Source: a virus
Lineage: Duplodnaviria > Heunggongvirae > Uroviricota > Caudoviricetes
Strand: one strand, 5' to 3'
IMG/VR virus record: IMGVR_UViG_2648501186_000003
Location: 1 to 55,284 of that record
DNA length: 55,284 nt
Shown: piece by piece, positions 936 to 41,863 of the stretch
Layout of the letters: every line of letters begins with the position of its first letter
Position numbering within the stretch: position 1 is the first letter of the stretch
Program-made: the position numbers and the translations under genes
The notes under the pieces: generated by a model
Seen by the model: the letters and a program-made list of their open reading frames with translations, nothing else
Databases searched by the model: none
What the model was told of the DNA's origin: nothing

Positions 936-936
936 A

Positions 937-970
937 GAAATCCCGCAGATTGGCGGGATTTCTTGTTTAT
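937..970. terminator. Rho-independent terminator hairpin between convergent genes
   Basis: GC stem (aaatcccgc...gcgggattt) followed by a T-rich run, directly after the stop at 933-935. Confidence 0.55.
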
Positions 971-2271
971 GCCAGGCGGGCTATGCGTATTTTACAATCA
1001 TCTAGGTGGATGCGTAGTGCTTCTAAACATGGAGTAAAGTTAGCTGAGAATTTGTCGGACTCACAGGCCAATGCATAAAATTTTTCAGCTAATTCAAGAG
1101 ATTCATCCCATATTTTTCGACTTACAAAGTCTGGTAGTGCTGTTTTTCTAAGCTCATTAGACATTGCTCCCCCAGAGCGTGGGGCAAAACCCATAGGTAA
1201 CATGTCATAGGCTGGAGCAATATGATATGGGCGTCCGTGGCTACTAATAAACGATAGGTTGCCATTATGCATATCGGTATTGCCTATTAGCACACCAAAA
1301 GACCATAGCCTTGTTGCTATAATAATCGCATCAGGATGGACGCACTTATTTTTTACCAACTCTTTAACCAGCAAGGGCCATGTTGCTCTTGCATTCCCAA
1401 CAAATTCTGCATCAAGTGCACGAAGTGAGAATACACCTACCCGACCGAGTTGACCAACACGATCAAATCGGGGAATTTCCAAGAATCTCTGACCGTTATA
1501 ATCAAAAACTTCTGTTTCTACCCCCAGAACTTTTAATGCGAGATGTTCAGCAAACAAGAGATCTCTCCAACGCTCACTTATAGGGGTGTCGTTAGGTGCA
1601 GAGAATTTCACTAATACATGTCCACGCTCTGTGAAAGTACAAAATTTGGGTTGTTCACCTCCAGCAGATGAACCTGGCACATCACCTTCACCAGCGGCTA
1701 AAGCTAATACAGGATATTCAATTTCACGATTAACAGGAACAGGAGGCTGCATCTCTAAAAAATGCGTGCGCGCTTGCTCTCCAATTAACAAATTACCAAC
1801 AACATCATGCCCATGCTTAAGTAAGGCTTTGATCACATCAGTATCTGACCATTGCTCTGGATTTGAGGGAAGGTTAAGTTCAAGAGCATATGCTGATGCA
1901 TATGCTCTTCCAAGGAAGCCTTGTGGACGCATATCAAATAACCACCAAGGTAACCCATCGCTATGCCTGTTATTTTTCCCATCCTCAACCATAACATAGC
2001 CTTCTGGCCTCACCGGAATGAGAGTACCAAGAACGCAAATACACCCCTCTTCAGTTATACGATAAATGGGGACTGATTCGAATCCTCTAAAAGAGTCTCG
2101 TAAAGCATATTGAATAGATCTTCCATTTCCGATCCTAACGATTTCATCACCAAGTTCTCTTAATGCTCTAGATATCGTTGGTTGGCTAACACTGAGTTTT
2201 TCAACCAATTGTCTTGGTGTCATAGGCCCTTGATTGAGCAAGTTACGGATTGTTGTTGCATGTGTAGCCAT
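967..2271 (-). CDS. HipA-family Ser/Thr kinase with fused N-terminal HTH (YjjJ/HipH-like)
   Basis: N-terminal HTH (PRQLVEKLSVSQPTISRALREL) and C-terminal HipA-type catalytic loop (LIGNTDMHNGNLSF). Start taken at the ATG at 2271; the track TTG start at 2331 would add 20 aa. Confidence 0.65.
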   Translation of the reverse strand: MATHATTIRNLLNQGPMTPRQLVEKLSVSQPTISRALRELGDEIVRIGNGRSIQYALRDSFRGFESVPIYRITEEGCICVLGTLIPVRPEGYVMVEDGKNNRHSDGLPWWLFDMRPQGFLGRAYASAYALELNLPSNPEQWSDTDVIKALLKHGHDVVGNLLIGEQARTHFLEMQPPVPVNREIEYPVLALAAGEGDVPGSSAGGEQPKFCTFTERGHVLVKFSAPNDTPISERWRDLLFAEHLALKVLGVETEVFDYNGQRFLEIPRFDRVGQLGRVGVFSLRALDAEFVGNARATWPLLVKELVKNKCVHPDAIIIATRLWSFGVLIGNTDMHNGNLSFISSHGRPYHIAPAYDMLPMGFAPRSGGAMSNELRKTALPDFVSRKIWDESLELAEKFYALACESDKFSANFTPCLEALRIHLDDCKIRIARLA

Positions 2272-2288
2272 AGTTTTAATTACTGTTG

Positions 2289-2321
2289 TGAATAGATTAA
2301 TGAATAGATTTATGAATGCAT
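2289..2321. repeat. Direct repeats TGAATAGATT x2 plus a partial third copy, just upstream of the kinase ATG
   Basis: Seen directly: tgaatagatta / tgaatagattt / tgaatgcat. Confidence 0.5.
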
Positions 2322-2443
2322 ACCATAGCAAGCAAAACGGGAGGTGTCACTAATTTAGATAAGTTAAAAAGACTTCTTTAAGAGATAATGACTAGGCGCT
2401 TTAACTGCTAGCTAACATAATAATTGGTCATTTAACGTGGAGT

Positions 2444-2468
2444 TCCCCGCCAACTGACGGGGTTTTTA
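2444..2468 (+). terminator. Plus-strand intrinsic terminator in a minus-strand intergenic region
   Basis: ccccgccaactgacgggg followed by tttttatt; the U-run is on the plus strand only. Confidence 0.5.
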
Positions 2469-3263
2469 TTAGTCACTTTCTGTTTCTTCTGGAATGTTTT
2501 CTTGCGGTTCTGCCAATGCAGCACGACATAGGTTCCTGGCATTGGCTATAGCCACACTTTTGACTTCATCCGTCATCGTGCAGGTAATGTACTGATCGAG
2601 TTCTTCAGCTCGGATGATGCTTTTGCCAATCAGAAACTGTATTTGCCAGTGCAGATCGGCATCCATAATCAGAATTTCTGCCGGGCCTTCAGGGCCAGCC
2701 GGGAAGGAAACATAAGACTGTTTGCCCAAGCCGATAACTCGACAACTTGTTTCAAGAATTGCGCGCTTGAGGTCTGACTTTGTAACGGAAACAGGTTGGT
2801 TTTCACCAGTGATTACGCCGTTGATATGGAAGTGAAAGGGCATGTAGCTTGAAATTCGCTCTACTTTCCATACGCCAGCAAGCGATCCTTCATGCAGCAC
2901 AATGGGGGTAACCGCGAGTTTCATCTCACCATATAACTGCTGGCAGATAGCTGGATTGCTGAATACATCCAAAGGTTCACACTCAAACAGCGGCGCAATC
3001 TGCATGAGGTCCATCATGGTCATACCAGAAGTACGAGCAGTAATGAATTTGCGCATGCCAGTATCCATTGTGCGCCAGATAGCCACACCATGTTTTTTGC
3101 TCACTTCTTCAGTAAAGCCCAGGTGGCACATGATGGTTTTTTCGATAGCCAGATCAGAGATAGAAACCTTTTCGCCTGGCACTCCATCATTATTGATGGT
3201 CACTTCGACACTCTGGCCATTACGTAGGCGGTATTGAATGGTTTTAGTATTTTGTGCTGTCAT
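2469..3263 (-). CDS. Hypothetical protein (264 aa)
   Basis: Long ORF; start chosen at the internal ATG at 3263, which has an AGGA Shine-Dalgarno sequence (track start at 3383). No family motif recognised. Confidence 0.5.
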   Translation of the reverse strand: MTAQNTKTIQYRLRNGQSVEVTINNDGVPGEKVSISDLAIEKTIMCHLGFTEEVSKKHGVAIWRTMDTGMRKFITARTSGMTMMDLMQIAPLFECEPLDVFSNPAICQQLYGEMKLAVTPIVLHEGSLAGVWKVERISSYMPFHFHINGVITGENQPVSVTKSDLKRAILETSCRVIGLGKQSYVSFPAGPEGPAEILIMDADLHWQIQFLIGKSIIRAEELDQYITCTMTDEVKSVAIANARNLCRAALAEPQENIPEETESD

Positions 3264-3460
3264 AGTCTTTCCTCTGCTTAAAACCTGGTGTATTGCGCCT
3301 TCAGGTGGGTCAGGAATGTTTTCCCACCAGCGAAAGCAATATCTCGGGGTGTTCTTTTCGTGAAAAGCGCGTGCCATTGCCAACTTTGGCGTTTTTTAGC
3401 GAGTTCGTGCTTTTGTTGGCGTCTGGACCACCGCTTTTCTTTCAATCGTTTTTTACTCAT

Positions 3461-3949
3461 TCAAAACGGAATATCGTCGTCAAAGTCCATTGGAGGTTCG
3501 TTATTGGCGTTGCTCTGAGGTTTACCGCCACCACTGTATTGCTGGTGGTTTTGAGGTTGGTTTGATTGCCCCCAGCCATTTGAGGACTGTGAATCGTCAC
3601 GGCGAGCGCCGATCATTTGCATGGTGCCGCCCTGGCTGACGATAATTTCCGTCGTGTAACGTTCTACACCGGCGTCATCTGTCCACTTACGGGTTTTAAG
3701 TTTCCCTTCGATGTAGACCTGAGAACCTTTTCGTAAATACTCACTCGCAATTTCAGCAAGTTTTCCGAACAAAACGACTTTATGCCATTCTGTTTGCTCT
3801 TTCTGTTGGCCCGTTTGCTTGTCGCGCCATGATTCATTCGTTGCGATGCTTAGTCTTCCGACCGCGCCGCCATTTGGTATATACCTGATCTCCGGGTCTT
3901 GCCCCAGGGTACCAATCAGGATGACTTTGTTTACACCGCGTTGTGCCAC
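3461..3949 (-). CDS. ssb: Single-stranded DNA-binding protein
   Basis: OB-fold N-terminus ([18 protein letters not shown]), Gly/Gln-rich linker and acidic tail ending DDDIPF. Confidence 0.9.
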
Positions 3950-3968
3950 TTATCTTACCTAATAAATT

Positions 3969-3985
3969 AAATTAATTAGAGCAAT
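3969..3985 (-). promoter_or_regulatory. C1-operator-like site (16/17 to ATTGCTCTAATAAATTT)
   Basis: aaattaattagagcaat in the divergent ssb/lyz intergenic region; the consensus is from memory of P1 C1 operators. Confidence 0.5.
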
Positions 3986-4118
3986 AATGTATATCTTTGA
4001 AACGTAGCTAACAAGTGATTTGCATTATCCTGTGCCTTCTAAAGGGATCGAGTCAGTCGGTATTGGCTGTGAATGGGTGTTTGTCCTGGAGCGTAAAAAA
4101 TTCGCTTATGAGGTCTTT

Positions 4119-4676
4119 ATGAAGGGAAAAACAGCCGCAGGAGGCGGTGCAATTTGCGCTATCGCGGTGATGATTACCATCGTGATGGGTAATGGCAATG
4201 TGCGAACCAACCAGGCGGGGCTTGAGCTTATCGGAAACGCTGAAGGTTGCCGACGTGACCCATACATGTGCCCGGCGGGTGTATGGACTGACGGGATTGG
4301 TAATACACACGGGGTAACGCCAGGCGTGCGAAAAACCGACCAGCAAATCGCCGCTGATTGGGAAAAGAATATCCTGATCGCTGAACGCTGTATTAACCAG
4401 CACTTCCGGGGCAAAGACATGCCCGATAATTCCTTCAGTGCAATGACAAGCGCGGCATTCAATATGGGATGCAATAACTTACGGACCTACTACAGCAAAG
4501 CGCGAGGCATGCGAGTCGAAACGTCCATCCACAAGTGGGCGCAGAAAGGGGAATGGGTGAATATGTGTAACCATCTCCCTGATTTTGTGAACAGTAACGG
4601 CGTGCCCCTGCGAGGTTTAAAGATTCGCCGTGAAAAAGAACACCAACTTTGCCTGACGGGACTGGTCAATGAATAA
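4119..4676 (+). CDS. lyz: SAR-type endolysin (T4-lysozyme/GH24 family)
   Basis: N-terminal Gly/Ala-rich signal-anchor (AAGGGAICAIAVMITIVMG) followed by a lysozyme catalytic region (ELIGNAEGCRRDPYMCPAGVWTDGIGNTHGV). Start set at the ATG at 4119, giving 185 aa. Confidence 0.8.
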   Translation: MKGKTAAGGGAICAIAVMITIVMGNGNVRTNQAGLELIGNAEGCRRDPYMCPAGVWTDGIGNTHGVTPGVRKTDQQIAADWEKNILIAERCINQHFRGKDMPDNSFSAMTSAAFNMGCNNLRTYYSKARGMRVETSIHKWAQKGEWVNMCNHLPDFVNSNGVPLRGLKIRREKEHQLCLTGLVNE

Positions 4677-4920
4677 ACTCCGGCAGCTCCGCAGACTTTC
4701 GACAATGAAGTTATCGCTGGCAGCGATAGTTTTCGACTCGATTTTCATGGCGGTATATGTGCTTAATGAAACGTGGCCACTGGAACCGCTATTGTATGCT
4801 GGGCTTCGGCTGTGCCTGACATTTTTGAGCATGGCCGCGAGATTGATGCAGCAGAAAGAAACCGCTTCAGATTGTCCACGCCGCGCGGTGCGCAAATATA
4901 TGGCACGCAGACGAAGGTGA
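4669..4920 (+). CDS. Small membrane protein coupled to lyz (possible lysis accessory)
   Basis: ATG overlaps the lyz stop; one hydrophobic helix and a basic C-terminus. Confidence 0.4.
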   Translation: MNKLRQLRRLSTMKLSLAAIVFDSIFMAVYVLNETWPLEPLLYAGLRLCLTFLSMAARLMQQKETASDCPRRAVRKYMARRRR

Positions 4921-4936
4921 TAATAGTTAACGAGAA

Positions 4937-4962
4937 CCCCGGCAGCCGCCGGGGTTATTTTT
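4937..4962 (+). terminator. Rho-independent terminator
   Basis: ccccggc-agcc-gccgggg followed by ttattttt. Confidence 0.6.
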
Positions 4963-4967
4963 GGTGG

Positions 4968-7698
<2,731 letters not shown>

Positions 7699-7764
7699 TT
7701 AATTAGAATAATTCGCATCGTGTTTGAACGGAATTTAACACTAGTCACTTGTTAAGGATTACCA

Positions 7765-10700
7765 ATGAACAAGCTATCTATGGGTGTGTTTCGCTGTTCA
7801 AGTGTCAGCGAAATATTGAAATACATTAGGGCAATAACATCTCACCGAGCGCCGATTAAATACGGCGTGGAAAAGGTGGAAGGCAAAAGCTATGACCGAC
7901 TGCGCCGGGAGGCGAATCAGAAGGCGATAGATTTGCTTAATTCGCTGGTGGACGGCGCGACACTGACAGATGAACAGCGCCAGATCCTGGCCGGGTACAC
8001 TGGTGAAGGCGGCATTGGCGGGTCCGTCTCCGAATATTACACACCAAAGCCTATCGCTGAAGGTGTCTGGGAGATCATGAAGCTCTACGGCGCGGACGTA
8101 GGTAACACTCTGGAACCATCGGCGGGAACCGGCGTTTTTAATGAGACAAAACCGGTTGGTACGGTGATGACCGCGACTGAGATCAGCAGTGTTTCCGGTC
8201 GTATAAACCAGTTGTTACACCCGGAAGACAGCGTACAGATTTCCCCGTTCGAACAGCTGGCTATAAACACGCCTAACGATTCATTCGACCATGTTGTGGG
8301 TAACGTTCCGTTCGGCGGTCGTGATAACACACGCAACATCGATAAGCCTTACGCAGAAGAAACGGACATGGGGTCTTACTTCATGCTCCGCATGCTGGAC
8401 AAGATAAAACCTGGCGGATTCATGTGTGTGATTGTGCCGCCGTCCATTGTTTCAGGTTCAAACATGAAGCGGTTACGCCTGCGCTTATCCCGTAAAGCTG
8501 AATTTCTTGGCGCTCACCGCTTGCCTACCGGTACTTTTGACGCAAACGGGACCAGTACAGTCGTTGATGTGGTGCTGATGCGCAAACATCCGGCAGAGAT
8601 GGCTGAGAAAATCCCCCTGGTGGATGAAAGCACTCTCGAATCGGCAAATGTGCTTTGGCCAACGTTTATTTCTGGCAAGTGGTTTGAAAAGGACGGCCGC
8701 CGGTTTGTTCATGGCACCCAGGAAAAGGGCTTCCAGGGGCGTATTGAGGTTCGTGCCGACGGTCAGATTGATAACCAGGCTCTTAAAGCGAAGCTGATTC
8801 ATCGTTTCGAAAGCCGTATCGACTGGTCTTTGCTCGATATGGCTGAACCGTCACCGACCGCAGACGTTGTTGGTGAAGGGGAAATGCGCCTGATTAATGG
8901 CGTATGGCAAAAATATGCTGGTGGTCGCTGGATTGAAGCTGATGCCGGGAAGGAACTTAAGATCGATGCTGCCAGTTATGGCGCGGATAGCTGGGAGGCT
9001 CTTCAGCGTAACCTGACTACAACAGAAGGCCGTCTCGGCATGACATTTACCCAGATGGCAAATGTCCGCGATAAGTACACCACATCAATCAGCGACGATA
9101 TGGTGCAGCTGGTGGACTGGATTAACAGCCAGCCTGAAAAATACCGTGAACGCTTGTATCGCGGGGCGATGATTGGCCGGATGTTAATTGAATATCAGGA
9201 CATGAAGGCCGCCGGGCATAGTGCTGAACAAATCGAACAGCAGCGCCTTTCTCTGGTATCCCGTTTGCAGGCAGAGATTGACCGTTTTGGTAACCCCGGT
9301 CGCGGTCCGATAGCGAAATTGTCGGGGAGCGGTGCGCGCGCCTGGTTTGCTTTCCGTGGTGCGATTAAGCTGGATGGCACTATTTCTGACGAGCTGACAG
9401 GAAAGCTGGTTACGCATGATTCCAGCGCAAGTTATGACTCCACCAGCTATCAGGACACCCTGCGTTATCTCTATAGCGATCTCACCCGCGATCCAATCCA
9501 GCTCGATGATTTCCGCCTTGCGTTTACCGGCGAACTGCCAGCCAGTGATGAAGAGTTGCTTAATTTATTGGCCAGCACCCCTGGTATTGCGGTTTCACCG
9601 TATGGCGGGATTGTTCCGTTCGCCCGCGCCACCAGCGGCGACATTAACGAGATAGTGGCTCCAAAACAGGAATTCCTCGCCACACTCCCCGACGGTCCAG
9701 TAAAGAACAACGTCCTTAATCAGCTGGCAGCTATCGAAGAGAAGCGCATCAAGACGCCAGCAGAGAATATCCGGTTTAAGCTCAATAGCCGTTGGTTCGA
9801 CCGCTCCGTCATTCTGGAATTTTTGCAGGAAAACGGCTATCCGGATCTGCGCTATGTGCAGTCAGTGCAGCTGGAAGGCGACGAAATGGTTTCTGACACC
9901 TATCACGGTGGTGATGGTCTGTTCGTCGGGCACCGATACGGTGTCGTCCAGCGCAAGGATAAAGAAACAGGCGAGATCCGCTACGAGTGGGACCGTAAAT
10001 CGGGTGAAAACGCGACCGGGTTCCCGGCACAGCTGGAAAAGTATCTCAATGGTGCGCGTATCGGTGGCAAAGATAGCGCGACGGCGAACGGCTACCGCGA
10101 GCAGATGGCACTGCTTGAGGACCAGTTCAATAAGTGGATCAAGACGCACGATCGCTACGATGAGCTGGTTGCCAAATACAACGATGTGTTCAATAGCAAT
10201 ATCCCGTATGAACACTCTGGCGATCCGCTTGGGTTGAAGGGATTAAGCGGTAAGCGCCAGCCATTTGATTACCAGAATAGCGAGGTGCGCCGACTGTCCG
10301 AAGATGGGCGCGGCATCCTGGGCTTCGGCACCGGGCTGGGTAAAACCACGACCGCGCTGGCGCTTGAGGCGTTCAACTATGAGAACGGTCGCTCCACCCG
10401 TACTGCGTATGTAGTGCCTAAATCAGTGCTGGAAAACTGGTATTACGAAGCAAAAGAATTCCTGAGTGAAGAGGCATTCAGTAACTACCTGTTCGTCGGT
10501 CTTGATGTGCTGATGGATGGCGATCAGATTCGCCAGGTGCCGGTGCTCGATGAGAACGGTAAACCTGTTCTTGGTACTGATGGCACTCCAGTTATGCGCG
10601 ATGCTCTTAAGCTGGCAGATGAAGCCACTATCACGGCGCGGATGAATGCGATCCCGCACTCAAATTACCGTGCAGTCGTGTTTACCAAAGAACAATACGC

Positions 10701-13700
10701 CCGCATTCCGCTACGTGATGACACCGTAGATGAGCATGCACAGGATATGCTTTATGACTTCGTTGCTGCCGGGCGCGTAGCCAGCGCAATGGACTCCGAC
10801 TCCCACCGCAAAGAGGCCGCGCGTCGCCGGGTATTGTCGGAGTATTCAGATACCGGCACCGAAAAAGCAGAGAAGTATCCGTACTTTGAGGATATGGGCT
10901 TCGATAGTGTGATCGCTGACGAAGGTCACAACTACCGCAATAGCTATAAAAATGGTCGCGAAGCGTCACAACTGGCCTATCTGCCCACCAGCGCGGTGGC
11001 GCAATCGGCGCGAGATATGGCAATTAAAAACGCGTACCTGATGAAAAAGAATGGCGGGCGCGGGCCGGTTCTCCTGACTGCAACGCCAGTCGTTAACACC
11101 CCGATCGATGCATACAACATGCTTTCTCATGTTCTGCCGAAGGAATACTGGCAGAACATGGGGATCTACGGTCCTGATGACTTCGTTAAATTCTTCGGCA
11201 AGACCAGGCTGGAAACGGTACAGAAAATTAGCGGTGAAGTTGAAGAAAAAATGGCGCTGGTGGGCTTTGAAAACCTTGATGCGCTGCGCGGCATATTCCA
11301 TCGCTGGGTAACGCTTAAAACGGCGGAAGACGTTAAGGATACCGTGGAGATCCCGGAGCTGGACGAACACCAGCAGGATGCACCACTTACTGAAGAACAA
11401 CTGGCGGCGTATGAAGAATTGCGTCAGCAGGCGGAAGCGGCGGCCAAAGCCAACAATGGCGTAACGACCTCGGTCAATGAAGACGGCGTGATTGAGCACG
11501 AGAAAGACCGTCCGATCTTCTCAATAATCAGGGATATGGACCGCGTATGTACTGACATGGACCTGTACTATCGCCGGATCACCTATCGTTTCCTGCCGGA
11601 GTACGCCGATGCGGTGCAGCAGCTGGCGGACAGTTTGCCTAAACAAGCCACCAGCGAAGACGACGACAGTGATGATTCAATCACGCAGCAATCGCAATAC
11701 TCCCTGATAGATAAGGGCGAGTTTATTCAGTTGCAGGTTCCGGAAGCGTTCGAGCAGGAAGTGAATAAGCGCCTGGCCAGGTTTGGCATTGACGAACAGA
11801 CCGTAACTCACCCCGTTACGCCCAAATACGCGAAGCTGATCGCCGCGCTGAAGGAGTTTTTCCCGGAAGGTAAGCAAATCATCTTCACCGATGAAAAAAC
11901 GCAGCACCAGAAGCTCAAGCGCATTATCTGCAATGCTCTAAACCTTGAACCTTCAAAGGTGGGGATCCTGAATGCTCAGACGGTTGCCGAGGCAGGTAAA
12001 ACCGGTAAGAAACTGAAAGCGGTTAAACCGCCGAAAGAGCTACCGGATGAACCAACAGATGCACAGATAGCGAAATACAACGAGCAAATGGCTCTGTATG
12101 ACGCCTATATCGCGCAGCAAAATGAAATGTCGTTGGGCGGTCTGGAAAAGATTGCAGCCGACTTCCAGGAGGGCCGGACTCCGATCATCATCTGCAACAA
12201 AAAGGCAGAGGTGGGTATCAACCTGCATCGAGGAACGACTGACATCCATCATCTGACGTTGCCATGGACACCAGCCAGTATCGCACAGCGTAACGGTCGC
12301 GGTGCCCGAGTTGGTTCCAACCGTGCAAGCGTTCGCGTTCACTACTACTGCGGCAAGGGGTCTTTCGATGAATACCGACTGAAGACGCTGAAGCGTAAAG
12401 CAGGCTGGATCTCCGATATCCTCCGTTCAGATAAGTCAGAAATGGAGAACGCCGACGCCAACGATATGATCGAAATGCAGATGTATACCGCTAAGGATGA
12501 TGGCGAACGTCTGGCAATGATGCAGGTTCAAATGGATAAGGCGAAAGCCGCGCAACGCGCTCGCCAGAAAGAACAGGCTACTATCGACCTTCAGAACTAC
12601 ATCAAGGCGCAGCACGCAGCTGGCGAGGATGTGGAGGTACTTACCGCTGAATTAGAGCGAAGCAAAGCGGAACTTGAAAAGACCACCGCCGAGGTAGCTA
12701 AATTCAAACAGGCGGCAATGGCCAAGGCAGCGGATAACGCAGACTGGAAGGCCCGCTGGGGGAGTGTCCATCACACAGACCGTATGTTGTTAGCACAGTA
12801 TCGCGCGTCGTTGAAAAGCGCCATTCAGCGCAAGGCTAATATCTCTCAGGCCATCTCCCGCTATGAGAAATTATTGAACCGTACTCAGAAGGCCGCGACG
12901 GATATCAAACGCCTGCGCCCGCTGGTGGAGGATGCAATAAATAAAGGCATTCTGGATATTGATCCTGACATGGTTAACCATGCGAGTGAGTTCCTTGTTA
13001 TCGGCGATCGCTCATGGCGTGTAGGCCAATACTACGATTGTGCCGGTGATATCGTTCGCATTAAGTCGCTGGACTTCGACAGCCAGCGCGCAGACGTGGA
13101 GATCATCTTTACCTTCAAAGGCACCAAATCGGGTAACTGGGATGTGAAGACGCTGGATAAACAGGTTGATGTAACTCCTGATGAAGATGCTGTTATGCAG
13201 AAAATCAGTGGTGGCGTCTCCATCGCCGGGATTAACGACATCATTTCCTGTGACGATTTCTACCGTTTCCAGCAGCGCGGCATGATCAAAATCACTGACT
13301 CATACGGCGTTCAGACTACAGAGTCAGGCTATAGCATTGATTTTGTTGGTACCTATACGGACCCACTGAAGCATGCGGTTTACCCGGATCGCCGTGACGG
13401 CGCGCTGAAGTCGTCAATTGCAAAATGGGTGCTTGGTATGATGTCGGAAGGGAATAACCGCCAGATCCGTTCGGCAGAAACATTCCTGGTTGAATTGTTT
13501 GGCTCCAATTATGGCGATGTAATCGCGTCATACGGAGATACGCTATCCCCTGAAGCAATTCAGGAGAAAATAGTGGATGCGATCGCAAAAATGCCGGAGA
13601 AAACAAGCCAGGGGGCTACTCGTAACGGGGATTCTGAACTTGAAGTCACCAATGCCATTTTCGGTACCAATGAGTTCCGGGCGTCAGATTATGAGATCAC

Positions 13701-15292: not shown

Positions 15293-16597
15293 CTATATAA
15301 ACTTAGATACAATATCGTGAATCTGTTGTAGCGGGATATCTTCCATCTCATTCTTAATAAGAGAGCGGTTAGATGCTGTCAGTGAAGGCCATTTTGTTTT
15401 CCAGGCTAGATATGCTAGCCATGAGTAGCCAGTTTCGTAAGGTTTATTCATACAAGTCATTGAGTGTTCAACCGCTTGTATGTATTTTTTCTCAAAGTTG
15501 GTTCCTTTTACTTCAAATAAACTACCAAAATAAATAAGCCATTTTGCAAGGTGTTCATACTGTTCCCATGCGCCAGGCTTTTTAGTAAGTTCTATTTTTT
15601 TATCTATTATATTACAAAAAACATTTAATACATTTTCATTATTCCAGCTATATCCAGATGATGAAATGGAGGAAATGATATGATAAAAAGAATCCTCTAG
15701 CTTCAAGAACTCTATTTTATACTCTCTTCCGTTTTTTATTACCGATTTGATTGAGTGCCTCAATTTGTCTTTTATTTTTTTTGCTTCTGGAATTTTATCG
15801 TTAAGTTTTCTAAAGAAATCAGATACCTCTGTTTTATCTATAACCCTAACCCCATAGCAGGAAAAATAGTAATCTTTAATAGGTTGCAATAGTTCCCCTC
15901 GGGAAACAAGGAAAATATTGGAGGACATTACGTTGTCCCGTGAAAATACCTTATATTCATTTATAATAGCCTTTAGGTTCGCGTCACTTAGAGAATAGCC
16001 AAGGATAACAATAGTGTTTTCATGTAGAACTGTGCTTAGTTTATTAGAAAAGTAAGAATTACCATTTATAAATCTGAAATAATCCTCGCTAGTAACAACC
16101 ATGTCTGATGGGGAGTCTATAGAACCGTGAACATGGTAGACTTTAACCTCACAATTATATTTTGGAATTGGCAGGCCGGGGGTGATTGTACAAGTTCGAT
16201 TCTCTCCAGCCAGCTTTTCTGCTAACTTGTCATAATTTGTCGTAATTACTTTAAATGTGTTTTCTTTGAAAAAGTCTTGAATATATTCAATTGATGGATC
16301 AAGTTCGATTGAGGCTATGATTTTCTCAATCTCTTGGTAAATATTTTTCCCCGAAAGTATAAGTTTTAGTGCAATAACCTGAGCAGCTTCTTCAAGGCTA
16401 AGGTCTTTTGCTTTTCCATCAGGAAATAATTCCTCTTTGAGTGAGTCACCATCCTTCAATAAACCGCACAGTTGCTCCAATAAAGATTGCCAACTTGGGG
16501 CTTTATCATCAGAAACAGCCTTTGAAAATCCAGTGCCTGTAAGAAAGCACAGCCTATGTGTAGCCGCTGCATAGGCAATTTCTATATACTCGCTCAT
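15293..16597 (-). CDS. SIR2-domain protein (sirtuin-like NADase, ThsA-type catalytic signatures)
   Basis: Motifs FLTGTGFS (Rossmann), TTNYD (N121) and HVHGS (H157); strongly AT-rich compared with neighbours. Confidence 0.7.
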   Translation of the reverse strand: MSEYIEIAYAAATHRLCFLTGTGFSKAVSDDKAPSWQSLLEQLCGLLKDGDSLKEELFPDGKAKDLSLEEAAQVIALKLILSGKNIYQEIEKIIASIELDPSIEYIQDFFKENTFKVITTNYDKLAEKLAGENRTCTITPGLPIPKYNCEVKVYHVHGSIDSPSDMVVTSEDYFRFINGNSYFSNKLSTVLHENTIVILGYSLSDANLKAIINEYKVFSRDNVMSSNIFLVSRGELLQPIKDYYFSCYGVRVIDKTEVSDFFRKLNDKIPEAKKIKDKLRHSIKSVIKNGREYKIEFLKLEDSFYHIISSISSSGYSWNNENVLNVFCNIIDKKIELTKKPGAWEQYEHLAKWLIYFGSLFEVKGTNFEKKYIQAVEHSMTCMNKPYETGYSWLAYLAWKTKWPSLTASNRSLIKNEMEDIPLQQIHDIVSKFI

Positions 16598-17889: not shown

Positions 17890-18111
17890 ATGGTTAATGC
17901 CAATCCTTGCGCACACCCTGAATTTATCTGGCGCTTTTACTCCTGCCAGAAACGTCACTATCACTTCGTTATCGCACCAACAGAAGATGAGGCACGTTCT
18001 CAGCTTCCGGATGCTCCCTGTATTTTCTCTGCCCGCTTTTCTACCGATTTGCGCAATTCTCTCAGTTACTGGTGCCTCCCTGTTAACGCTTCTGCTCAGG
18101 AGGGGCTATGA
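17890..18111 (+). CDS. Icd-like small protein (73 aa), coupled to the downstream antirepressor
   Basis: Stop overlaps the antirepressor ATG (ATGA); a 73-aa paralog sits at 23960-24181. Confidence 0.5.
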   Translation: MVNANPCAHPEFIWRFYSCQKRHYHFVIAPTEDEARSQLPDAPCIFSARFSTDLRNSLSYWCLPVNASAQEGL

Positions 18112-19166
18112 GAACGTCATTAGTCACCCGTGAAGAGATGATCGAGGCAATTGAACAGCACACTGCCTGTATCAGTACCAGGGATATACCTGGCGTTATT
18201 GCCAACTACTTCATGATCACCAAACAACTTTACCGGAGAAAGGACAAAAACGCGGTTCACCGCATTCTGCTGTCTGATATCCGTGAATACCTGCTCGAAC
18301 AGGGGCATCTGAATTACGCAACCGTCGCAGCCGAAACACGCAAGGAGGCACACAGAATGAAAGCAAGCAAACCAGATGTTGTCGTTACAAAGCCTTTGAC
18401 AGCAACCACACCAGCAACGGCCATGGATGCTATCCCCAACACCGGAGACACAATCGACAGCCAGACGCTGTTAAAGATGGTCAATGAAGCGCGGAAATTA
18501 TGTAGCGAAAAACCAGTTCGCAATAATGATTTTATTGCCAGAGTTAAGGATGAACTGGATGGTGAGTACTACGAAATTTTCGTAGTGCAAAAATTAAACA
18601 ACACAACATCTGAAACTATCTCCATGACCTACAAACAAGCCCTGCGAGTTGCCGCGCGCGAGTCAAAAGCGGTCCGCCGTTCGCTGATCGACAAACTGGA
18701 GGAATTGCAGCAGGCTAGCACTGCTTCTCCAGTGATTCCCCAAACACTCCCCGAAGCTCTGCGCCTGGCTGCCGAGCTGGCTGAACAAAAGCAACTTCTG
18801 GAACAGAAAGCCCACCAGCTAAATCAGCAGCTGGTGGCCGCCGCTCCTAAAGTCGATTTTGCCGACCGGGTATCAGTAGCTAAAGGGATCCTGATTGGGA
18901 ATTTTGCAAAGGTTGTTGGACTTAAGCAAAACGCGCTGTTTGCCTGGTTACGGGAGAACGGCATCCTGATAGCGTCCGGTGGACGTAAAAATGTGCCGTT
19001 CCAGCAATACATCAACGCTGGGTATTTTTCTGTGAAAGAAGTGGTGCTGGATGATGAAGATGGCTATCAGATACGACTGACGCCCCAGTTAACGGGGAAA
19101 GGCCAGCAGTGGTTGACGCGTAAACTGCTCGATGCTGGCTTGTTAAAACCGGTGGCGGCTGAATGA
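17917..19166. repeat. Left arm of a roughly 1.2-kb inverted duplication (leader, icd-like and antirepressor ends)
   Basis: Near-identical to the reverse complement of about 22845-24153 at the N- and C-terminal coding parts; the central part is diverged. Confidence 0.7.
18108..19166 (+). CDS. Phage antirepressor-like protein with KilAC-type C-terminal domain (copy 1)
   Basis: C-terminal 150 aa are identical to the 372-aa paralog; the first ~75 aa are near-identical; the middle domain differs. Confidence 0.65.
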   Translation: MRTSLVTREEMIEAIEQHTACISTRDIPGVIANYFMITKQLYRRKDKNAVHRILLSDIREYLLEQGHLNYATVAAETRKEAHRMKASKPDVVVTKPLTATTPATAMDAIPNTGDTIDSQTLLKMVNEARKLCSEKPVRNNDFIARVKDELDGEYYEIFVVQKLNNTTSETISMTYKQALRVAARESKAVRRSLIDKLEELQQASTASPVIPQTLPEALRLAAELAEQKQLLEQKAHQLNQQLVAAAPKVDFADRVSVAKGILIGNFAKVVGLKQNALFAWLRENGILIASGGRKNVPFQQYINAGYFSVKEVVLDDEDGYQIRLTPQLTGKGQQWLTRKLLDAGLLKPVAAE

Positions 19167-19168
19167 TT

Positions 19169-19192
19169 AAAAAAGGCGGCCTTGCGGCCGCC
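19169..19192 (-). terminator. Minus-strand intrinsic terminator
   Basis: ggcggcc-ttgc-ggccgcc with a run of T on the minus strand. Confidence 0.5.
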
Positions 19193-19775: not shown

Positions 19776-20807
19776 CTAATCGCCATCTTCCAGCAGGCGC
19801 ACCATTGCCCCTGTTTCACTATCCAGGTTACGGATATAGTTCATGACAATATTTACGTTGGTCCAGCCACCAGCTTGCATGATCTCCGGTATTGAAACTC
19901 CGGCGCGGGCCATATCTCGCGCGGCTCCGACACGGGCACTGTGTCCAGACCAGGCCAGGTATCTCTGACCAGAGTCATCCTTAGCGCCGTAAATCAATCG
20001 ATGAGTTGCTTCAAAAATCCCTTCCAGGGCGCGAGTTGATAGCTGGCTGGTGGCAGATGGCGCAGCTACGCCATTTTTTCTGACACGGCAAAACAAGTAG
20101 TTATTCGGATCATCAGCCACACCAGAGACAGAAATCCATCGCTCGACCAGTTTAGTTACCCCCAGGCTAAGTGCCTTCTCTACACCAGCGGTACTAACCA
20201 GCGTTTTCGTTCTGCCAATATGGATTAACATTCTCCCACCGTCTGTACGTGAGATATCTTTAACCCTGATCCTGGCAATTTCGGCTATACGTAACAGGGT
20301 GTTATAAGCAATCCCCAGAAATGCCAGATTACGTATATCCTGGCAGCGATCGCTATTTTCCATGAGTGAACGAACCTGGTCGAAATCAGTGCGTTCGAAC
20401 GCCAGTGCCTGTTTTGCACGTTCACCGGCATCAACGTTTTCTTTTCGGATCCGTCGCATGACCAGTGAAACAGCATTACTGTCACTTGGTCGTGGCAGCC
20501 CGGACCGACGATGAAGCATGTTTAGCTGGCCCAAATGTTGCTGGATAGTTTTCACTGCCAGACCGCGCGCCTGAAGATATAGAAGATAATCGCGAACATC
20601 TTCAGGTTCTGCGGGAAACCACTTCCGGTTATTCAACTTGCACCATGCCGCCCACGACCGGCAAACGGACAGAAGCATTTTCCAGGTATGCTCAGAAAAC
20701 GCCTGGCGATCCCTGAACATGTCCATCAGGTTCTTGCGAACCTCATCACTCGTTGCATCGACCGGTAATGCAGGCAAATTTTGGTGTACGGTCAGTAAAT
20801 TGGACAT
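19776..20807 (-). CDS. cre: Cre tyrosine recombinase
   Basis: 343-aa translation matches P1 Cre as remembered (MSNLLTVHQNLPALPV...RLLEDGD). Confidence 0.97.
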   Translation of the reverse strand: MSNLLTVHQNLPALPVDATSDEVRKNLMDMFRDRQAFSEHTWKMLLSVCRSWAAWCKLNNRKWFPAEPEDVRDYLLYLQARGLAVKTIQQHLGQLNMLHRRSGLPRPSDSNAVSLVMRRIRKENVDAGERAKQALAFERTDFDQVRSLMENSDRCQDIRNLAFLGIAYNTLLRIAEIARIRVKDISRTDGGRMLIHIGRTKTLVSTAGVEKALSLGVTKLVERWISVSGVADDPNNYLFCRVRKNGVAAPSATSQLSTRALEGIFEATHRLIYGAKDDSGQRYLAWSGHSARVGAARDMARAGVSIPEIMQAGGWTNVNIVMNYIRNLDSETGAMVRLLEDGD

Positions 20808-21225
20808 TTAACACTCAGATGATGGTTTTAAGTAAAGTGTACAGGATCGGCTCTGCCTTTACCTGTTTATGGTTCTCGTCATAGAAACGCCAGCGACCGC
20901 GCGTGCGTTCTATTTTCTCTTCACCGAGCGATAATGACAGTTGGCAACTATCACGATCAAACCCTTTTGCCCGCCAGTAACCACGGTTTTTCTCAAGCTC
21001 AAGATGAGTGGACACTTTAGCAGTTGAATATCCCATTTTTCACCTCTGATTGATTGGTGGTGCTAAGTGCGCTACGCGAAATCTGTAGGACTAACACTGC
21101 CAACTTTTCACAGATTTTACGTAGCGCAACCTTGATCAAATGATCAAGTGATCACTATTTGACCTGCTAAGGTATTGAACTGTATGGATTTACAGGTAAA
21201 TTGATCATATTCAATAACCCTTAAG

Positions 21226-21259
21226 ATAACTTCGTATAATGTTCGCTATACGAAGTTAT
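21226..21259. other. lox recombination site with canonical 13-bp arms and a variant spacer
   Basis: ATAACTTCGTATA-ATGTTCGC-TATACGAAGTTAT; canonical loxP spacer is ATGTATGC. Confidence 0.9.
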
Positions 21260-21302
21260 CAGGTCCGAAGAGGAGTTTACGTCCAGCTGCGCACAAAAAT
21301 CA

Positions 21303-21319
21303 AGAATTATTAGAGCAAT
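21303..21319 (-). promoter_or_regulatory. C1-operator-like site (15/17)
   Basis: agaattattagagcaat. Confidence 0.45.
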
Positions 21320-22815: not shown

Positions 22816-22850
22816 ATGCCCGGCATCAACCGGGCATTCTTCCATTATTC
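22816..22850. terminator. Hairpin terminator between convergent c1 and antirepressor copy 2
   Basis: tgcccgg-catcaa-ccgggca followed by a T-rich stretch. Confidence 0.45.
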
Positions 22851-23963
22851 AGCCGCCACCGGTTTTAACAAGCCAGCATCGAGCAGTTTACGCGTCAGCC
22901 ACTGCTGGCCTTTACCCGTTAATTGAGGCGTCAACCGTATCTGGTAGCCATCTTCATCATCCAGCACCACTTCTTTCACCGTGAAATACCCCGCATTGAT
23001 GTACTGCTGGAACGGCACATTTTTACGTCCACCGGACGCTATCAGGATGCCGTTCTCCCGTAACCAGGCAAACAGCGCGTTTTGCTTAAGTCCAACAACC
23101 TTTGCAAAATTCCCAATCAGGATCCCTTTAGCTACTGATACCCGGTCGGCAAAATCGACCTTAGGAGCGGCGGCCACCAGCTGCTGATTTAGCTGGTGGG
23201 CTTTCTGTTCCAGAAGTTGCTTTTGTTCAGCCAGTTCGGCAGCCAGGCGTAGGGCTTCAGGAAGCGTCTGGGGGATTGCGATCGGTTGCTGTTCTTTTTG
23301 TCGGAAGTAGCTGTCTTCCAGTTTTTCAAAGAATGCCCATGCCTGATCGGTTTCGAGCATTTTAGCGTGGCGGGCTGCGCCGCGTTCTGTCCAGAGGGTG
23401 AGTGAGCGAACATTGCGAGCAATTTTTACAGAGTAGTTTAAAGCTACTCTGTGCTTCAACTCGCGCAATGATTCTCCTTCAACTTTGAAAAAGTGCTTCC
23501 CTTCAACAAAGCGTACTTTGTTCTCATGATGATTTTGGCGAATACGGATTGTTTCTGTCCCATACCCTCTAGCAAGAGTCTCGGTTGTCACTACACGCAC
23601 TCCCTGCCATTCCAGAACGGGAATTTCATCAGACTGATTCTGAACAACCACCAGCTCCGATTCCTGAACTGAAGGTGCATGAATTTTTTCTGATTTAACG
23701 TTAGTTGCTTTCATTCTGTGTGCCTCCTTGCGTGCTTCGGCTGCGGCGGTTGCGTAATTCAGATGACCCTGTTCGAGCAGGTATTCGCGGATATCAGACA
23801 ACAGGATACGGTGAACCGCGTTCTTGTCCTTTCTCCGGTAAAGTTGTTTGGTGATCATGAAGTAGTTGGCAATAACGCCTGGTATATCCCTGGTACTGAT
23901 ACAGGCAGTGTGCTGTTCAATTGCCTCGATCATCTCTTCACGGGTGACTAATGACGTTCTCAT
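22845..23963 (-). CDS. Phage antirepressor-like protein with Bro-N/ANT-type middle domain and KilAC C-terminal domain (copy 2)
   Basis: 372 aa; shares its N-terminal ~75 aa and C-terminal 150 aa with the copy at 18108-19166. Confidence 0.65.
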   Translation of the reverse strand: MRTSLVTREEMIEAIEQHTACISTRDIPGVIANYFMITKQLYRRKDKNAVHRILLSDIREYLLEQGHLNYATAAAEARKEAHRMKATNVKSEKIHAPSVQESELVVVQNQSDEIPVLEWQGVRVVTTETLARGYGTETIRIRQNHHENKVRFVEGKHFFKVEGESLRELKHRVALNYSVKIARNVRSLTLWTERGAARHAKMLETDQAWAFFEKLEDSYFRQKEQQPIAIPQTLPEALRLAAELAEQKQLLEQKAHQLNQQLVAAAPKVDFADRVSVAKGILIGNFAKVVGLKQNALFAWLRENGILIASGGRKNVPFQQYINAGYFTVKEVVLDDEDGYQIRLTPQLTGKGQQWLTRKLLDAGLLKPVAAE

Positions 23964-24153
23964 AGTCCCTCCTGAGCAGAAGCGTTAACAGGGAGGCACC
24001 AGTAACTGAGAGAATTGCGTGAATCAGTGGAAAAACGGGCAGAGAAAATACATGGGGCGTCAGGAAGCTGAGAGCGGGCCTCATCTTCTGTTGGTGCAAT
24101 AACGAAGTGATAGTGACGTTTTTGGCAGGAGTAAAAGCGCCAGATAAATTCAG
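22845..24153. repeat. Right arm of the inverted duplication
   Basis: Reverse complement matches 17917-19166 at both ends. Confidence 0.7.
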
Positions 24154-24181
24154 GATGAGTTGGGGTAGGGATAGTAGCCAT
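23960..24181 (-). CDS. Icd-like small protein (73 aa), coupled to antirepressor copy 2
   Basis: Residues 10-73 are near-identical to the 17890-18111 ORF; ATGA overlap with the antirepressor start. Confidence 0.5.
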   Translation of the reverse strand: MATIPTPTHPEFIWRFYSCQKRHYHFVIAPTEDEARSQLPDAPCIFSARFSTDSRNSLSYWCLPVNASAQEGL

Positions 24182-29857: not shown

Positions 29858-31416
29858 ATGAAAATGACAAGTATTCAACAACGTGCAGAGCTTCATCGTC
29901 AAATCTGGCAAATTGCTAACGATGTCAGAGGTTCTGTCGATGGATGGGATTTTAAGCAATACGTTCTGGGCGCACTTTTCTACCGTTTTATCAGCGAAAA
30001 TTTTTCCAGTTATATGGAAAATGGTGATGACAGCATCTGTTATGCGGCACTTGATGACGGCATTATTACTGATGACATTAAAGACGATGCCATCAGAACC
30101 AAAGGCTACTTCATCTACCCCAGTCAGCTTTTCTGCAACGTAGCGGCGAAAGCAAATACCAATGACAGACTGAATGCAGATTTAAATAGTATCTTCGTTG
30201 CTATCGAAAGCTCTGCTTACGGTTACCCTTCAGAAGCTGACATCAAAGGTTTGTTTGCTGATTTCGATACAACCAGTAACCGCCTGGGGAATACCGTTAA
30301 GGATAAAAATGCCCGCCTGGCTGCGGTTCTGAAAGGGGTTGAAGGGTTAAAGCTTGGCGACTTTAACGAACATCAGATTGACCTGTTCGGCGATGCCTAT
30401 GAGTTCCTGATTTCTAACTATGCCGCGAATGCCGGTAAGTCCGGCGGCGAGTTCTTTACACCGCAGCACGTCTCTAAGCTGATTGCACAACTGGCTATGC
30501 ACGGGCAGACCCACGTTAACAAAATCTACGACCCGGCAGCAGGTTCCGGTTCTCTGTTATTGCAGGCTAAAAAGCAGTTTGATGACCACATCATCGAAGA
30601 AGGTTTTTTTGGTCAGGAGATCAACCATACGACCTATAACCTGGCGCGTATGAACATGTTTTTGCACAACATCAACTACGACAAGTTTGATATCAAGCTG
30701 GGCAATACGCTGACTGAACCGCACTTCAGAGATGAAAAACCGTTTGATGCCATCGTTTCTAACCCGCCGTATTCGGTGAAATGGATTGGCAGCGATGACC
30801 CGACGCTGATTAACGATGAGCGTTTTGCCCCGGCTGGCGTTCTGGCCCCCAAATCCAAAGCTGACTTTGCGTTTGTATTACATGCGCTGAACTATCTTTC
30901 GGCCAAAGGTCGTGCTGCGATTGTCTGCTTCCCGGGTATTTTTTACCGTGGCGGCGCAGAGCAGAAAATCCGTCAGTATCTGGTCGATAATAACTATGTC
31001 GAAACCGTAATTTCACTGGCTCCGAACCTGTTCTTTGGCACCACCATTGCCGTAAACATTCTGGTTCTGTCCAAACATAAAACGGATACCAACGTTCAGT
31101 TTATTGATGCCAGCGAACTGTTCAAAAAAGAGACCAACAACAATATCCTGACCGATGCCCATATCGAACAAATTATGCAGGTATTCGCCAGCAAGGAAGA
31201 TGTTGCTCATCTGGCGAAATCTGTCACGTTTGAGACCGTTGTAGCGAATGACTATAACCTGTCAGTGAGCAGCTATGTGGAAGCGAAAGATAACCGCGAA
31301 ATTATCGATATTGCTGAGCTGAATGCTGAGCTGAAAACCACGGTCAGCAAAATCGACCAGTTGCGCAAAGATATTGATGCGATTGTGGCTGAAATTGAAG
31401 GCTGCGAGGTGCAGAA

Positions 31417-31420
<4 letters not shown>
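29858..31420 (+). CDS. hsdM: Type I restriction-modification methyltransferase subunit (Type IC, EcoR124-like)
   Basis: 520 aa; N6-adenine methyltransferase motifs (NPPY), N-terminus like EcoR124 HsdM as remembered. Confidence 0.95.
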
Positions 31421-32610
<1,190 letters not shown>

Positions 32611-32731
32611 TTGACCATTGCTACCGACCGGGCCACCTTAACACCCGGTCAGTATATAGACTATTTTTTACACGCTGGAAGTCACCATTAACGCCCTTCC
32701 GGCCCTTGCCAGACGGCACAAAGGATGCGCT

Positions 32732-35700
32732 ATGACTCATCAGACACACACCATTGCTGAATCCAATAACTTTATCGTCCTTGATAAGTACATCAAAGCT
32801 GAGCAAACAAGCGACAGCTACCAGAGCGAATCGGACCTGGAACGTGAACTGATTCAGGACCTGCAAAATCAGGGCTATGAATTTATATCCGTAAAATCAC
32901 AGTCAGCGATGCTGGCCAACGTTCGGGAACAGCTTCAGAGCCTCAATGGTGTGGTATTTAATGACAGCGAATGGCGGCGTTTCACGGAGCAGTATCTGGA
33001 CAACCCGAGCGATGGTATTCTGGATAAGACCCGTAAAATCCATATCGACTATATTTGCGACTTTATTTTTGACGACGGGCGTCTTGAGAACATCTATCTG
33101 ATCGATAAAAAGAATCTCATGCGCAACAAAGTGCAGATTATCCAGCAGTTTGAACAGACGGGTTCTCATGCTAACCGTTATGACGTCACGATCCTGGTTA
33201 ATGGCTTACCACTGGTACAAATCGAACTGAAAAAGCGCGGCGTGGCGATTCGTGAGGCTTTCAACCAGATACATCGTTACAGTAAAGAGAGTTTTAACAG
33301 CGAAAATTCCCTGTTTAAGTATCTGCAACTGTTTGTCATTTCTAACGGCACCGATACCCGTTACTTTGCCAACACCACAAAGCGCGATAAAAACAGTTTT
33401 GATTTCACCATGAACTGGGCGAAATCAGACAACACGCTGATTAAAGACCTCAAAGACTTTACCGCCACCTTTTTCCAGAAACATACTCTGCTTAATGTTC
33501 TGGTGAACTACAGCGTGTTCGATATTAGCCAGACGCTACTGGTGATGCGACCGTACCAGATTGCCGCCACCGAACGAATCTTATGGAAAATCAACAGCTC
33601 CTATAAAGCGAAAAACTGGTCTAACCCCGAAAGCGGTGGCTTTATCTGGCACACCACCGGTTCTGGTAAAACCCTCACCAGCTTTAAAGCCGCGCGGCTG
33701 GCAACAGAGCTGGACTTTATTGATAAAGTCTTCTTTGTGGTCGACAGAAAAGACCTCGATTACCAGACCATGAAGGAATATCAGCGTTTTTCGCCAGACA
33801 GCGTCAACGGCTCGGAAAATACCGCAGGCCTTAAACGAAATCTGGATAAGGACGATAACAAAATTATCGTCACCACTATTCAGAAACTTAATAACCTGAT
33901 GAAAACAGAAAGCGACCTGCCTGTATACAATCAGCAAGTGGTGTTTATATTTGATGAATGTCACCGCAGCCAGTTTGGAGAAGCGCAGAAAAACCTGAAG
34001 AAGAAATTCAAACGCTATTATCAGTTTGGTTTTACCGGCACCCCTATTTTCCCGGAAAACGCTTTAGGTTCAGAAACGACCGCCAGCGTATTTGGTCGTG
34101 AATTGCATTCGTATGTAATTACCGATGCGATTCGTGACGAAAAAGTGCTCAAATTCAAGGTGGACTACAACGATGTGCGGCCACAGTTTAAGTCTTTAGA
34201 GACAGAAACTGACGAGAAAAAACTAAGTGCGGCTGAAAATCAGCAGGCGTTTCTTCATCCCATGCGTATTCAGGAAATCACGCAATATATTCTGAATAAT
34301 TTCCGCCAGAAAACTCACCGTACCTTCCCTGGCTCAAAAGGTTTTAATGCTATGTTGGCAGTGAGCAGCGTGGATGCCGCGAAAGCCTATTATGCGACGT
34401 TTAAACGGTTACAAGAAGAAGCCGCTAATAAATCGGCTACCTATAAACCGCTGCGTATTGCGACAATCTTCTCCTTTGCCGCCAATGAAGAACAAAATGC
34501 CATTGGTGAAATTTCCGATGAAACTTTTGATACCAGCGCAATGGACAGCAGTGCTAAAGAGTTTCTGGACGCTGCAATTCGTGAATATAACAGCCATTTT
34601 AAAACTAACTTTAGCACCGACAGTAACGGTTTTCAGAACTACTATCGTGATTTAGCCCAGCGGGTTAAAAATCAGGATATCGATCTGCTAATTGTCGTGG
34701 GGATGTTCTTAACCGGCTTCGATGCTCCAACATTGAACACGCTATTCGTCGATAAAAACTTACGTTTTCACGGCCTGATGCAGGCATTTTCCCGCACCAA
34801 CCGCATTTATGACGCCACTAAAACCTTCGGTAATATCGTCACTTTCCGGGATCTGGAACGCTCAACTATTGATGCCATAACGCTGTTTGGTGACAAAAAC
34901 ACCAAAAATGTGGTGTTAGAAAAGAGTTATACAGAGTATATGGAAGGCTTTACTGATGCTGCTACAGGTGAAGCTAAACGCGGCTTCATGACAGTAGTTT
35001 CAGAACTGGAACAACGGTTCCCTGACCCTGCCAGTATTGAAAGTGAAAAAGAGAAGAAAGACTTCGTTAAACTGTTTGGTGAATACCTGCGTGCCGAGAA
35101 CATCCTGCAAAACTATGATGAATTTGCCACGCTGAAAGCCCTGCAACAAATCGATCTTAGCGATCCTGTTGCGGTAGAAAAATTCAAAGAAGAACATTAT
35201 GTGGATGATGAAAAGTTCGCTGAATTGCAAACGATTCGTCTCCCTGCTGAACGCAAGATTCAGGATTATCGTTCTGCCTATAACGATATTCGTGACTGGC
35301 AGCGCCGCGAGAAAGAAGCTGATAAAAAAGAAAAATCAACCACTGACTGGGATGACGTGGTTTTTGAGGTCGATTTGCTGAAGTCTCAGGAAATAAACCT
35401 GGATTATATCCTTGGACTGATTTTCGAACACAACAGACAAAATAAAGGCAAGGGCGAAATGATTGAAGAGGTCAAACGCTTAATTCGTTCAAGCCTGGGG
35501 AACCGGGCGAAAGAGGGCCTGGTGGTCGATTTTATTCAGCAAACGAACCTGGATGATTTACCAGACAAAGCCAGTATCATTGAGGCATTCTTTACGTTTG
35601 CTCAACGCGAACAGCAACGTGAAGCAGAAGCATTGATAAAAGAAGAAAATCTCAATGAAGATGCAGCAAAACGCTATATTCGCACGTCTTTAAAACGCGA

Positions 35701-35848
35701 ATACGCCACCGAAAATGGCACAGAATTAAACGAAACATTACCAAAACTTAGTCCGTTAAATCCGCAATATAAAACGAAAAAACAGGCAGTTTTCCAGAAA
35801 ATCGTCTCGTTTATTGAGAAGTTTAAAGGCGTAGGCGGAAAAATATAG
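32732..35848 (+). CDS. hsdR: Type I restriction endonuclease subunit (Type IC)
   Basis: 1038 aa; helicase motifs (TGSGKT, DECH) and an N-terminal nuclease region. Confidence 0.95.
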
Positions 35849-40816: not shown

Positions 40817-40979
40817 TCATTTCAGCGATTACAGGGTCCACTACAGCATCTGTTTCCTGTTCATTACGCGGCATGACCGATGCCAGAAACTCATAATTAA
40901 CCTTGGATGACACGATTATTCTCCCGATGTTAAAGCGCACTACCACAAAGAGCGTATATGCACTAATTAATTTATTATT

Positions 40980-41558: not shown

Positions 41559-41560
41559 AA

Positions 41561-41806: not shown

Positions 41807-41863
41807 TTTTGTTTCCTCGTGAAGAACCTACTTAAGGGCAGAATGATACATTTCACAATCAAA

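Follow-up and report, generated by a model that had tools for sequence, protein, structure and literature searches.

A rare natural spacer allele of the lox site in a P1-like element carrying canonical Cre

The 55,284-nucleotide stretch of DNA analysed here (the window; IMG/VR virus record IMGVR_UViG_2648501186_000003, Caudoviricetes) carries, next to a cre gene, a lox site whose arms are those of loxP and whose spacer is not, which raises the question of whether the altered spacer is genuine, whether the site would still serve its own element and whether it would still exchange with loxP. Cre is known to bind the two arms, to cut the spacer one base in from either end and to swap strands over a 6-bp overlap, and the spacers of the two partners must match for efficient ligation; Lee and Saito, as summarized in PMC1479339, found that homology is needed at spacer positions 2-5 and 6-7, and PMC2018622 also holds that efficient recombination requires spacer homology in the overlap. 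Our analysis shows the site to be a rare, derived spacer allele, which quite probably is close to neutral, recombines with itself through the element's own Cre and has reduced exchange with loxP.

Structure of the lox site

The site and the two genes on its cre side have the following positions in the window.

21226..21259, plus strand: complete 34-bp lox site, an exact match to the loxP arms and collinear with P1 lox
21226..21238, plus strand: left 13-bp Cre-binding arm ATAACTTCGTATA, identical to the loxP arm
21239..21246, plus strand: 8-bp spacer ATGTTCGC, canonical form ATGTATGC, with 21243 A>T and 21244 T>C
21247..21259, plus strand: right 13-bp Cre-binding arm TATACGAAGTTAT, identical to the loxP arm
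20815..21036, minus strand: cra, the Cre-associated ORF of 73 aa, between lox and cre; cra is annotated at the homologous place in P1, P7 and phiW39
19776..20807, minus strand: cre, an ORF of 343 aa with 343/343 identity to PDB 1nzb chain A

The segment 21226-21259 reads ATAACTTCGTATA-ATGTTCGC-TATACGAAGTTAT, with 26 of 26 arm bases agreeing with loxP, and it is the single match to the loxP arm pattern across the 55-kb window with up to three mismatches permitted; none of 100 shuffles of the window sequence contained any match. Alignment with P1 shows that two spacer bases, position 5 (A>T) and position 6 (T>C), are the sole differences within the 34 bp and that the orientation to cre is as in P1. 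Both changed bases lie inside the 6-bp strand-exchange overlap (positions 2-7), so that TGTATG becomes TGTTCG. The spacer is still 8 bp long and asymmetric (its reverse complement, GCGAACAT, is not identical to it), and the site therefore retains its direction. The P1-like gene order cre-cra-lox-imc/coi-c1 is also present, with the cognate Cre encoded beside the site. The window site thus has every structural property of a loxP-type Cre target except the canonical spacer ATGTATGC, from which it departs at positions 5 and 6, and for this reason it is a lox allele rather than loxP in the strict sense. An earlier sequence-only reading of the window had described perfect loxP arms, a spacer changed from AT to TC at positions 5-6 and a Cre of canonical P1 type, and our alignments bear it out on all three points, the encoded recombinase being identical to wild-type P1 Cre throughout.

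The canonical loxP of P1, P7, phiW39, phi456 and vB_EcoM-673R5 has the same arms, the same position between cra/cre and imcAB/coi/c1 and the same orientation, and the P1 locus shares with the window both the Cre protein and the flanking promoter, LexA and Dam elements; the difference is confined to the spacer, ATGTTCGC in place of ATGTATGC, and to the overlap contained in it. The sites lox511, lox5171, lox2272, m2, m3, m7 and m11 resemble the window site in joining wild-type arms to an altered spacer, and such engineered spacer mutants are expected to recombine with themselves and only poorly with loxP (PMC1479339). The window site differs from them in being natural, in being altered at positions 5 and 6 and in being absent from the mutants listed in PMC1479339. 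Functionally it would belong with these spacer-variant lox sites, as a natural member. The Dre/rox system of phage D6, reportedly described by Sauer and McDermott in 2004, is said to be a natural P1-family module without cross-reaction with Cre/loxP. Its recombinase and its arms have both diverged, whereas in the window recombinase and arms are unchanged and the spacer alone differs.

Carriers and origin of the allele

The identical lox allele is present in at least four separate assemblies belonging to one lineage. These are contig LBBN01000034.1 of GCA_001005685.1 (E. coli; 100% identical to the window over 6.2 kb), the complete plasmids CP122667 (ETEC4072; 17 mismatches to the window over 40 kb) and NZ_CP122664 (ETEC4073; one mismatch and three gaps over 32.9 kb), both from Belgian pig ETEC strains, and a contig of GCA_019180115.1 (two mismatches over 5.8 kb). 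The sequence-only reading had allowed that a sequencing error at the two spacer positions might account for the variant, which is excluded by the occurrence of the same site in four assemblies that differ at other positions. Judged from these identities, all carriers of the ATGTTCGC allele form a single, near-clonal lineage.

Among relatives with data the ETEC1701 plasmid (NZ_CP122941) is the nearest; it is 99.4% identical to the window over 12 kb, has the same unusual gene context and carries the spacer ATGTATGC. The exact Cra protein of the window is encoded on at least 24 public contigs, and among the ten identical-Cra contigs examined the spacer was canonical in eight and variant in two (the window and GCA_019180115.1). 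P1, P7, phiW39, phi456 and vB_EcoM-673R5 likewise have the canonical spacer. As the nearest relatives, including contigs with the same Cra, are canonical, the ATGTTCGC allele is derived.

The two complete plasmids, CP122667 and NZ_CP122664, are decayed derivatives of 66-68 kb with copies of IS91 and IS100 and loss of tail genes. In NZ_CP122664 there are three IS91 copies and IS100, a tail gene is truncated by IS91 beside repB, and the SIR2 gene is split in two. The window, compared over 40682-42625, has no IS91 insertion, and tail, ban and dmt genes follow there; since it is undecayed and yet has the allele, the allele is older than the decay. With two of the four carriers decayed in this way, the site may be under weaker selection in some members of the lineage.

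We also considered a templated origin of the double substitution and rejected it. The 10-mer AATGTTCGCT occurs again at 23405-23414 on the minus strand, inside ant, where the match stops at 10 bp; about 0.1 exact repeats of AATGTTCGCT would be expected by chance, and a search that tolerated one mismatch gave 8 matches versus 4.9 expected.

Predicted self- and cross-recombination

The site is the resident lox of a P1-like phage-plasmid of E. coli, and the two adjacent substitutions arose in one small lineage. The unchanged Cre should bind both perfect arms as in P1, cut one base inside each spacer end and exchange strands across the overlap TGTTCG. Its natural partners would be copies from the same element, either sisters in a plasmid dimer or the terminally redundant copies present after infection, and because such copies are identical the usual functions of the site should be preserved; on this analysis we predict efficient self-recombination of the ATGTTCGC site. 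If the partner were a canonical loxP, whether on another P1-like element or in a laboratory construct, the strand swap would leave mismatches at two of the six overlap positions, so that recombination should be much reduced and probably not abolished. That both changes fall in overlap positions 2-7 makes reduced compatibility with loxP a reasonable prediction, possibly with some leakiness. The sequence-only reading had gone further and held that the variant affects dimer resolution and cyclisation, but both reactions pair two identical copies and never a canonical partner, and for this reason the variant would be irrelevant to them if the spacer is a good substrate.

Published work on matched spacers bears directly on that condition. 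Matched non-canonical spacers recombined in vivo in 33 of 33 cases and the central TA was not required (PMC2018622); in vitro, recombination averaged 30.5% for matched versus 4.6% for unmatched spacers, and in a Cre-overproducing strain 12 of 21 unmatched pairs reached completion (PMC2018622). One in vitro screen found no preference for identical spacers, a conclusion disputed by the authors of PMC2018622. In a library of 6000 matched spacers designed as ANNNNNNC, 84% were efficient, and canonical bases were preferred only at A1, G7 and C8 (A4', G3 and C4 in the numbering of that paper), as reported in PMC11260471. The spacer ATGTTCGC fits the pattern ANNNNNNC and keeps the canonical bases at positions 1, 7 and 8. 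The same library lessens the value that the sequence-only reading had seen in the site as a natural orthogonal lox: matched non-canonical spacers already work by thousands and the ANNNNNNC design covers this pattern, so that there is little practical need for another.

An alternative is that the double substitution, by removing the central TpA step, weakens or inactivates the site and is tolerated in a decaying prophage-plasmid. Earlier literature, as cited in PMC2018622, held the central TA to be important, and PMC11260471 reports poor recombination for certain matched spacers that carry few changes, less than 10% in the case of one with three mismatches; against this, inefficient sites made up only 7.6% at three mismatches and fewer as mismatches decrease, and the positions found to matter most in that study are all retained in ATGTTCGC. 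The IS-ridden state of two carriers, which have lost their tail genes, would fit a site no longer under selection, but the window retains tail and replication genes without IS91 insertions, and the allele predates the decay. With perfect arms and an intact Cre identical to that of P1 in addition, we consider an impaired site unlikely.

Natural spacer variation among P1-like elements

The sequence-only reading had proposed a survey of lox spacers across P1-like genomes, and the survey shows that ATGTTCGC is rare. In 5426 complete E. coli genomes we found 694 lox-like records, with 675 exactly canonical sites, another 5 canonical sites with a mismatch near the end of an arm, 1 site of the ATGTTCGC allele and 11 other non-canonical sites. 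PLSDB gave 695 lox-like records, with 668 exactly canonical, 2 of the ATGTTCGC allele and 17 other non-canonical sites. About 100 IMG/VR contigs with perfect arms included 96 natural canonical contigs, 3 with other spacers, 1 that looks engineered and none with ATGTTCGC. The lox spacer is thus canonical in approximately 97-98% of cases in nature, with approximately 2-3% non-canonical in total. When JGI metagenomes and representative genomes of GTDB were scanned for spacers with a non-TA centre, only vector lox5171 sites and lox linker artefacts came up. In the literature covered by our search, to which most subscription journals did not belong, we found no paper with the exact site and no survey of natural lox spacers.

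The window does hold a real natural variant of lox, as had been claimed, but not one that is unique in kind. At least five further natural spacer alleles are present in P1-like elements, namely ATGTACGC (CP020522 and CP107058), ATGTTTGC (CP100503), and ATGAACGC, ATGCATGC and ATGTGTGT, which come from IMG/VR and are absent from the 5426 complete E. coli genomes. These alleles have perfect loxP arms, the same genomic context and mostly a near-identical Cre, and differ from the window in spacer and backbone. ATGTACGC and ATGTTTGC are the two possible one-step intermediates between ATGTATGC and ATGTTCGC; their flanks differ from those of the window, and for this reason they are probably independent mutations rather than ancestors. 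The Cre encoded beside ATGTACGC, ATGTTTGC, ATGAACGC and ATGCATGC is 98.8-100% identical to P1 Cre. The sole diverged Cre is that of the ATGTGTGT locus, with 77% identity to P1 Cre across an available stretch of 122 N-terminal residues, and it seems from this partial sequence to be a diverged recombinase that keeps the same arms. Spacer polymorphism without a change in Cre is, by these comparisons, a wider pattern among P1-like elements. In the six variant alleles listed here, positions 1-3 and 7 are never changed; the changes fall at positions 4-6 and 8, with position 8 changed in one of the six.

Two of these loci have further features of their own. The ATGTGTGT site (IMGVR_UViG_2579778564_000016, excerpt 1-2125) has perfect loxP arms and one flank that is unrelated to P1. 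In NZ_CP100503 (pLH50-c-C, excerpt 1-3034; spacer ATGTTTGC), genes for a HigB toxin and a helix-turn-helix protein occupy the usual place of cra, the gene immediately past cre is of the TnpB family, and the annotated length of Cre is 350 aa.

We also considered whether the spacer is under exceptional purifying selection, which is only weakly supported. Differences from the consensus per site in the IMG/VR set were 0.004 in the spacer versus 0.021 in 120 flanking bases, but 35 of 106 flanking 8-mers were at least as conserved as the spacer, suggesting that the extra constraint on the spacer relative to its flanks is modest.

As exchange by Cre between P1-like elements would be limited by spacer identity, spacer alleles could identify lineages whose recombination at lox with the remaining elements has ceased. 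A selective version of this idea is that the change was favoured because it would keep Cre from joining the element to P1-like elements with canonical loxP that share its cell or superinfect it, in which case spacer alleles would define lox compatibility groups. The existence of several natural alleles, including both one-step intermediates, is consistent with this, as is the clustering of the changes at positions 4-6, the part of the overlap that most affects partner choice, with positions 1-3 and 7 constant and position 8 altered once among the six listed variants; drift on tolerant positions, however, would fit the same pattern equally well. Every allele is very rare, ATGTTCGC is confined to its one near-clonal lineage, the IMG/VR variants do not recur in the complete E. 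coli genomes, the conservation of the spacer is only moderately above that of its flanks, and nothing shows co-residence with canonical elements. We therefore regard adaptive isolation of this element as improbable, and it seems to us similarly doubtful that lox spacer alleles in general constitute compatibility groups among P1-like phage-plasmids, evolved stepwise by way of naturally occurring single-base intermediates and kept by preventing Cre-mediated cointegrates and hybrids; were this so, the window site would represent one naturally isolated group.

The ATGTTCGC allele is most likely a near-neutral polymorphism. The rare natural alleles mostly change central positions that are tolerant in laboratory screens, and the locus offers a small, clean data point on a spacer that Cre does not read base-specifically and that is yet nearly invariant in nature. 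It is a minor natural polymorphism of modest interest and no new kind of system, with the caveat that wild P1-like plasmids cannot all be safely assumed to have a loxP compatible with laboratory sites.

That the window site is an artefact, whether through faulty sequencing or assembly or as an engineered lox of laboratory origin, is very improbable: vector lox5171 sites and lox-linker artefacts do exist in public assemblies, but the identical site comes from four assemblies of different projects and strains, the change is not of the homopolymer-error type, the spacer equals none of the engineered spacers listed in PMC1479339, and the native P1 context, between cra/cre and coi/c1, rules out an engineered or vector origin.

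Several further lox sites lie outside P1-like plasmids. Sites in unrelated scaffolds of Ca. Paracaedibacter symbiosus (NZ_JQAK01000001, ATGTATGC, excerpt 2514-2936) and Gemmata sp. (HG799465, ATGCATGC, excerpt 5032-5065), one of which adjoins a run of N, look like leftover linkers of Cre-circularised mate-pair libraries, that is, assembly artefacts. Two JGI metagenome contigs with lox5171 in identical flanks (excerpt about 330-369) look like cloning-vector contamination, and one IMG/VR contig, in which a 200-bp stretch of high-GC DNA holds three canonical loxP sites (excerpt 4673-4877), looks engineered. The chromosomal record of E. coli NCCP 15734 (NZ_CP097001, excerpt 1-12074) contains a P1-like cre-lox-c1-ant-pac arrangement with canonical loxP. 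There are 10-18 chromosomal lox places in the complete E. coli genomes, which could be integrated P1-like elements or misassemblies.

Regulatory and genomic surroundings of the site

Transfer of the P1 annotation (AF234172) by alignment places the following elements, all predicted by homology, on either side of the site.

21178-21197, plus strand: LexA box homologue
21197-21202, plus strand: homologue of the P1 P2coi -10
21203-21206, plus strand: Dam site 1 homologue
21274-21279 (-10) and 21298-21303 (-35), minus strand: homologue of the P1 P4cre promoter
21303-21319, minus strand: homologue of the C1 operator Oc1e

The P2coi, LexA and Dam homologues (21178..21206) lie on the cre side of lox and outside the spacer, and transcription from the P2coi homologue would, by homology with P1, cross lox toward coi/c1. 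The predicted P4cre and Oc1e homologues (21274..21319) lie on the c1 side, with P4cre reading through lox toward cra/cre. By this annotation transfer, none of the annotated promoter hexamers, LexA boxes, Dam sites or C1 operators extends into the spacer. Nor was any change found in hairpin or cruciform stability, as the canonical, variant and intermediate sites all have a predicted single-stranded DNA fold energy of -9.3 kcal/mol. Roughly 60 bp from lox and one base past the Oc1e homologue, position 21320 is A in the window versus G in the ETEC4072 and ETEC4073 plasmids.

The block c8-cre-cra-lox-coi-c1 is flanked by two inverted icd-ant (antirepressor) modules, at 17914-19190 and 22821-24157 of the window. 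Their repeat arms, of 453 and 456 nt, show 95% and 93% complementarity, and the middles of the two ant genes differ (352 aa versus 372 aa). Homologous recombination between the modules could invert the entire 3.6-kb cre-lox-immC segment. The ETEC1701 plasmid and several public contigs have the same double arrangement, and in plasmid pQ502 (strain Q5) the left icd-ant copy is replaced by ref. The window also carries accessory genes at 15293-16597 (minus strand), 29858-35848 (plus strand) and 967-2331 (minus strand), named from the annotation of near-identical relatives, in which they are a SIR2-family protein, a type I restriction-modification system (hsdM, hsdS, hsdR) and a HipA-family toxin (YjjJ); by these names they are probably defence or addiction cargo.
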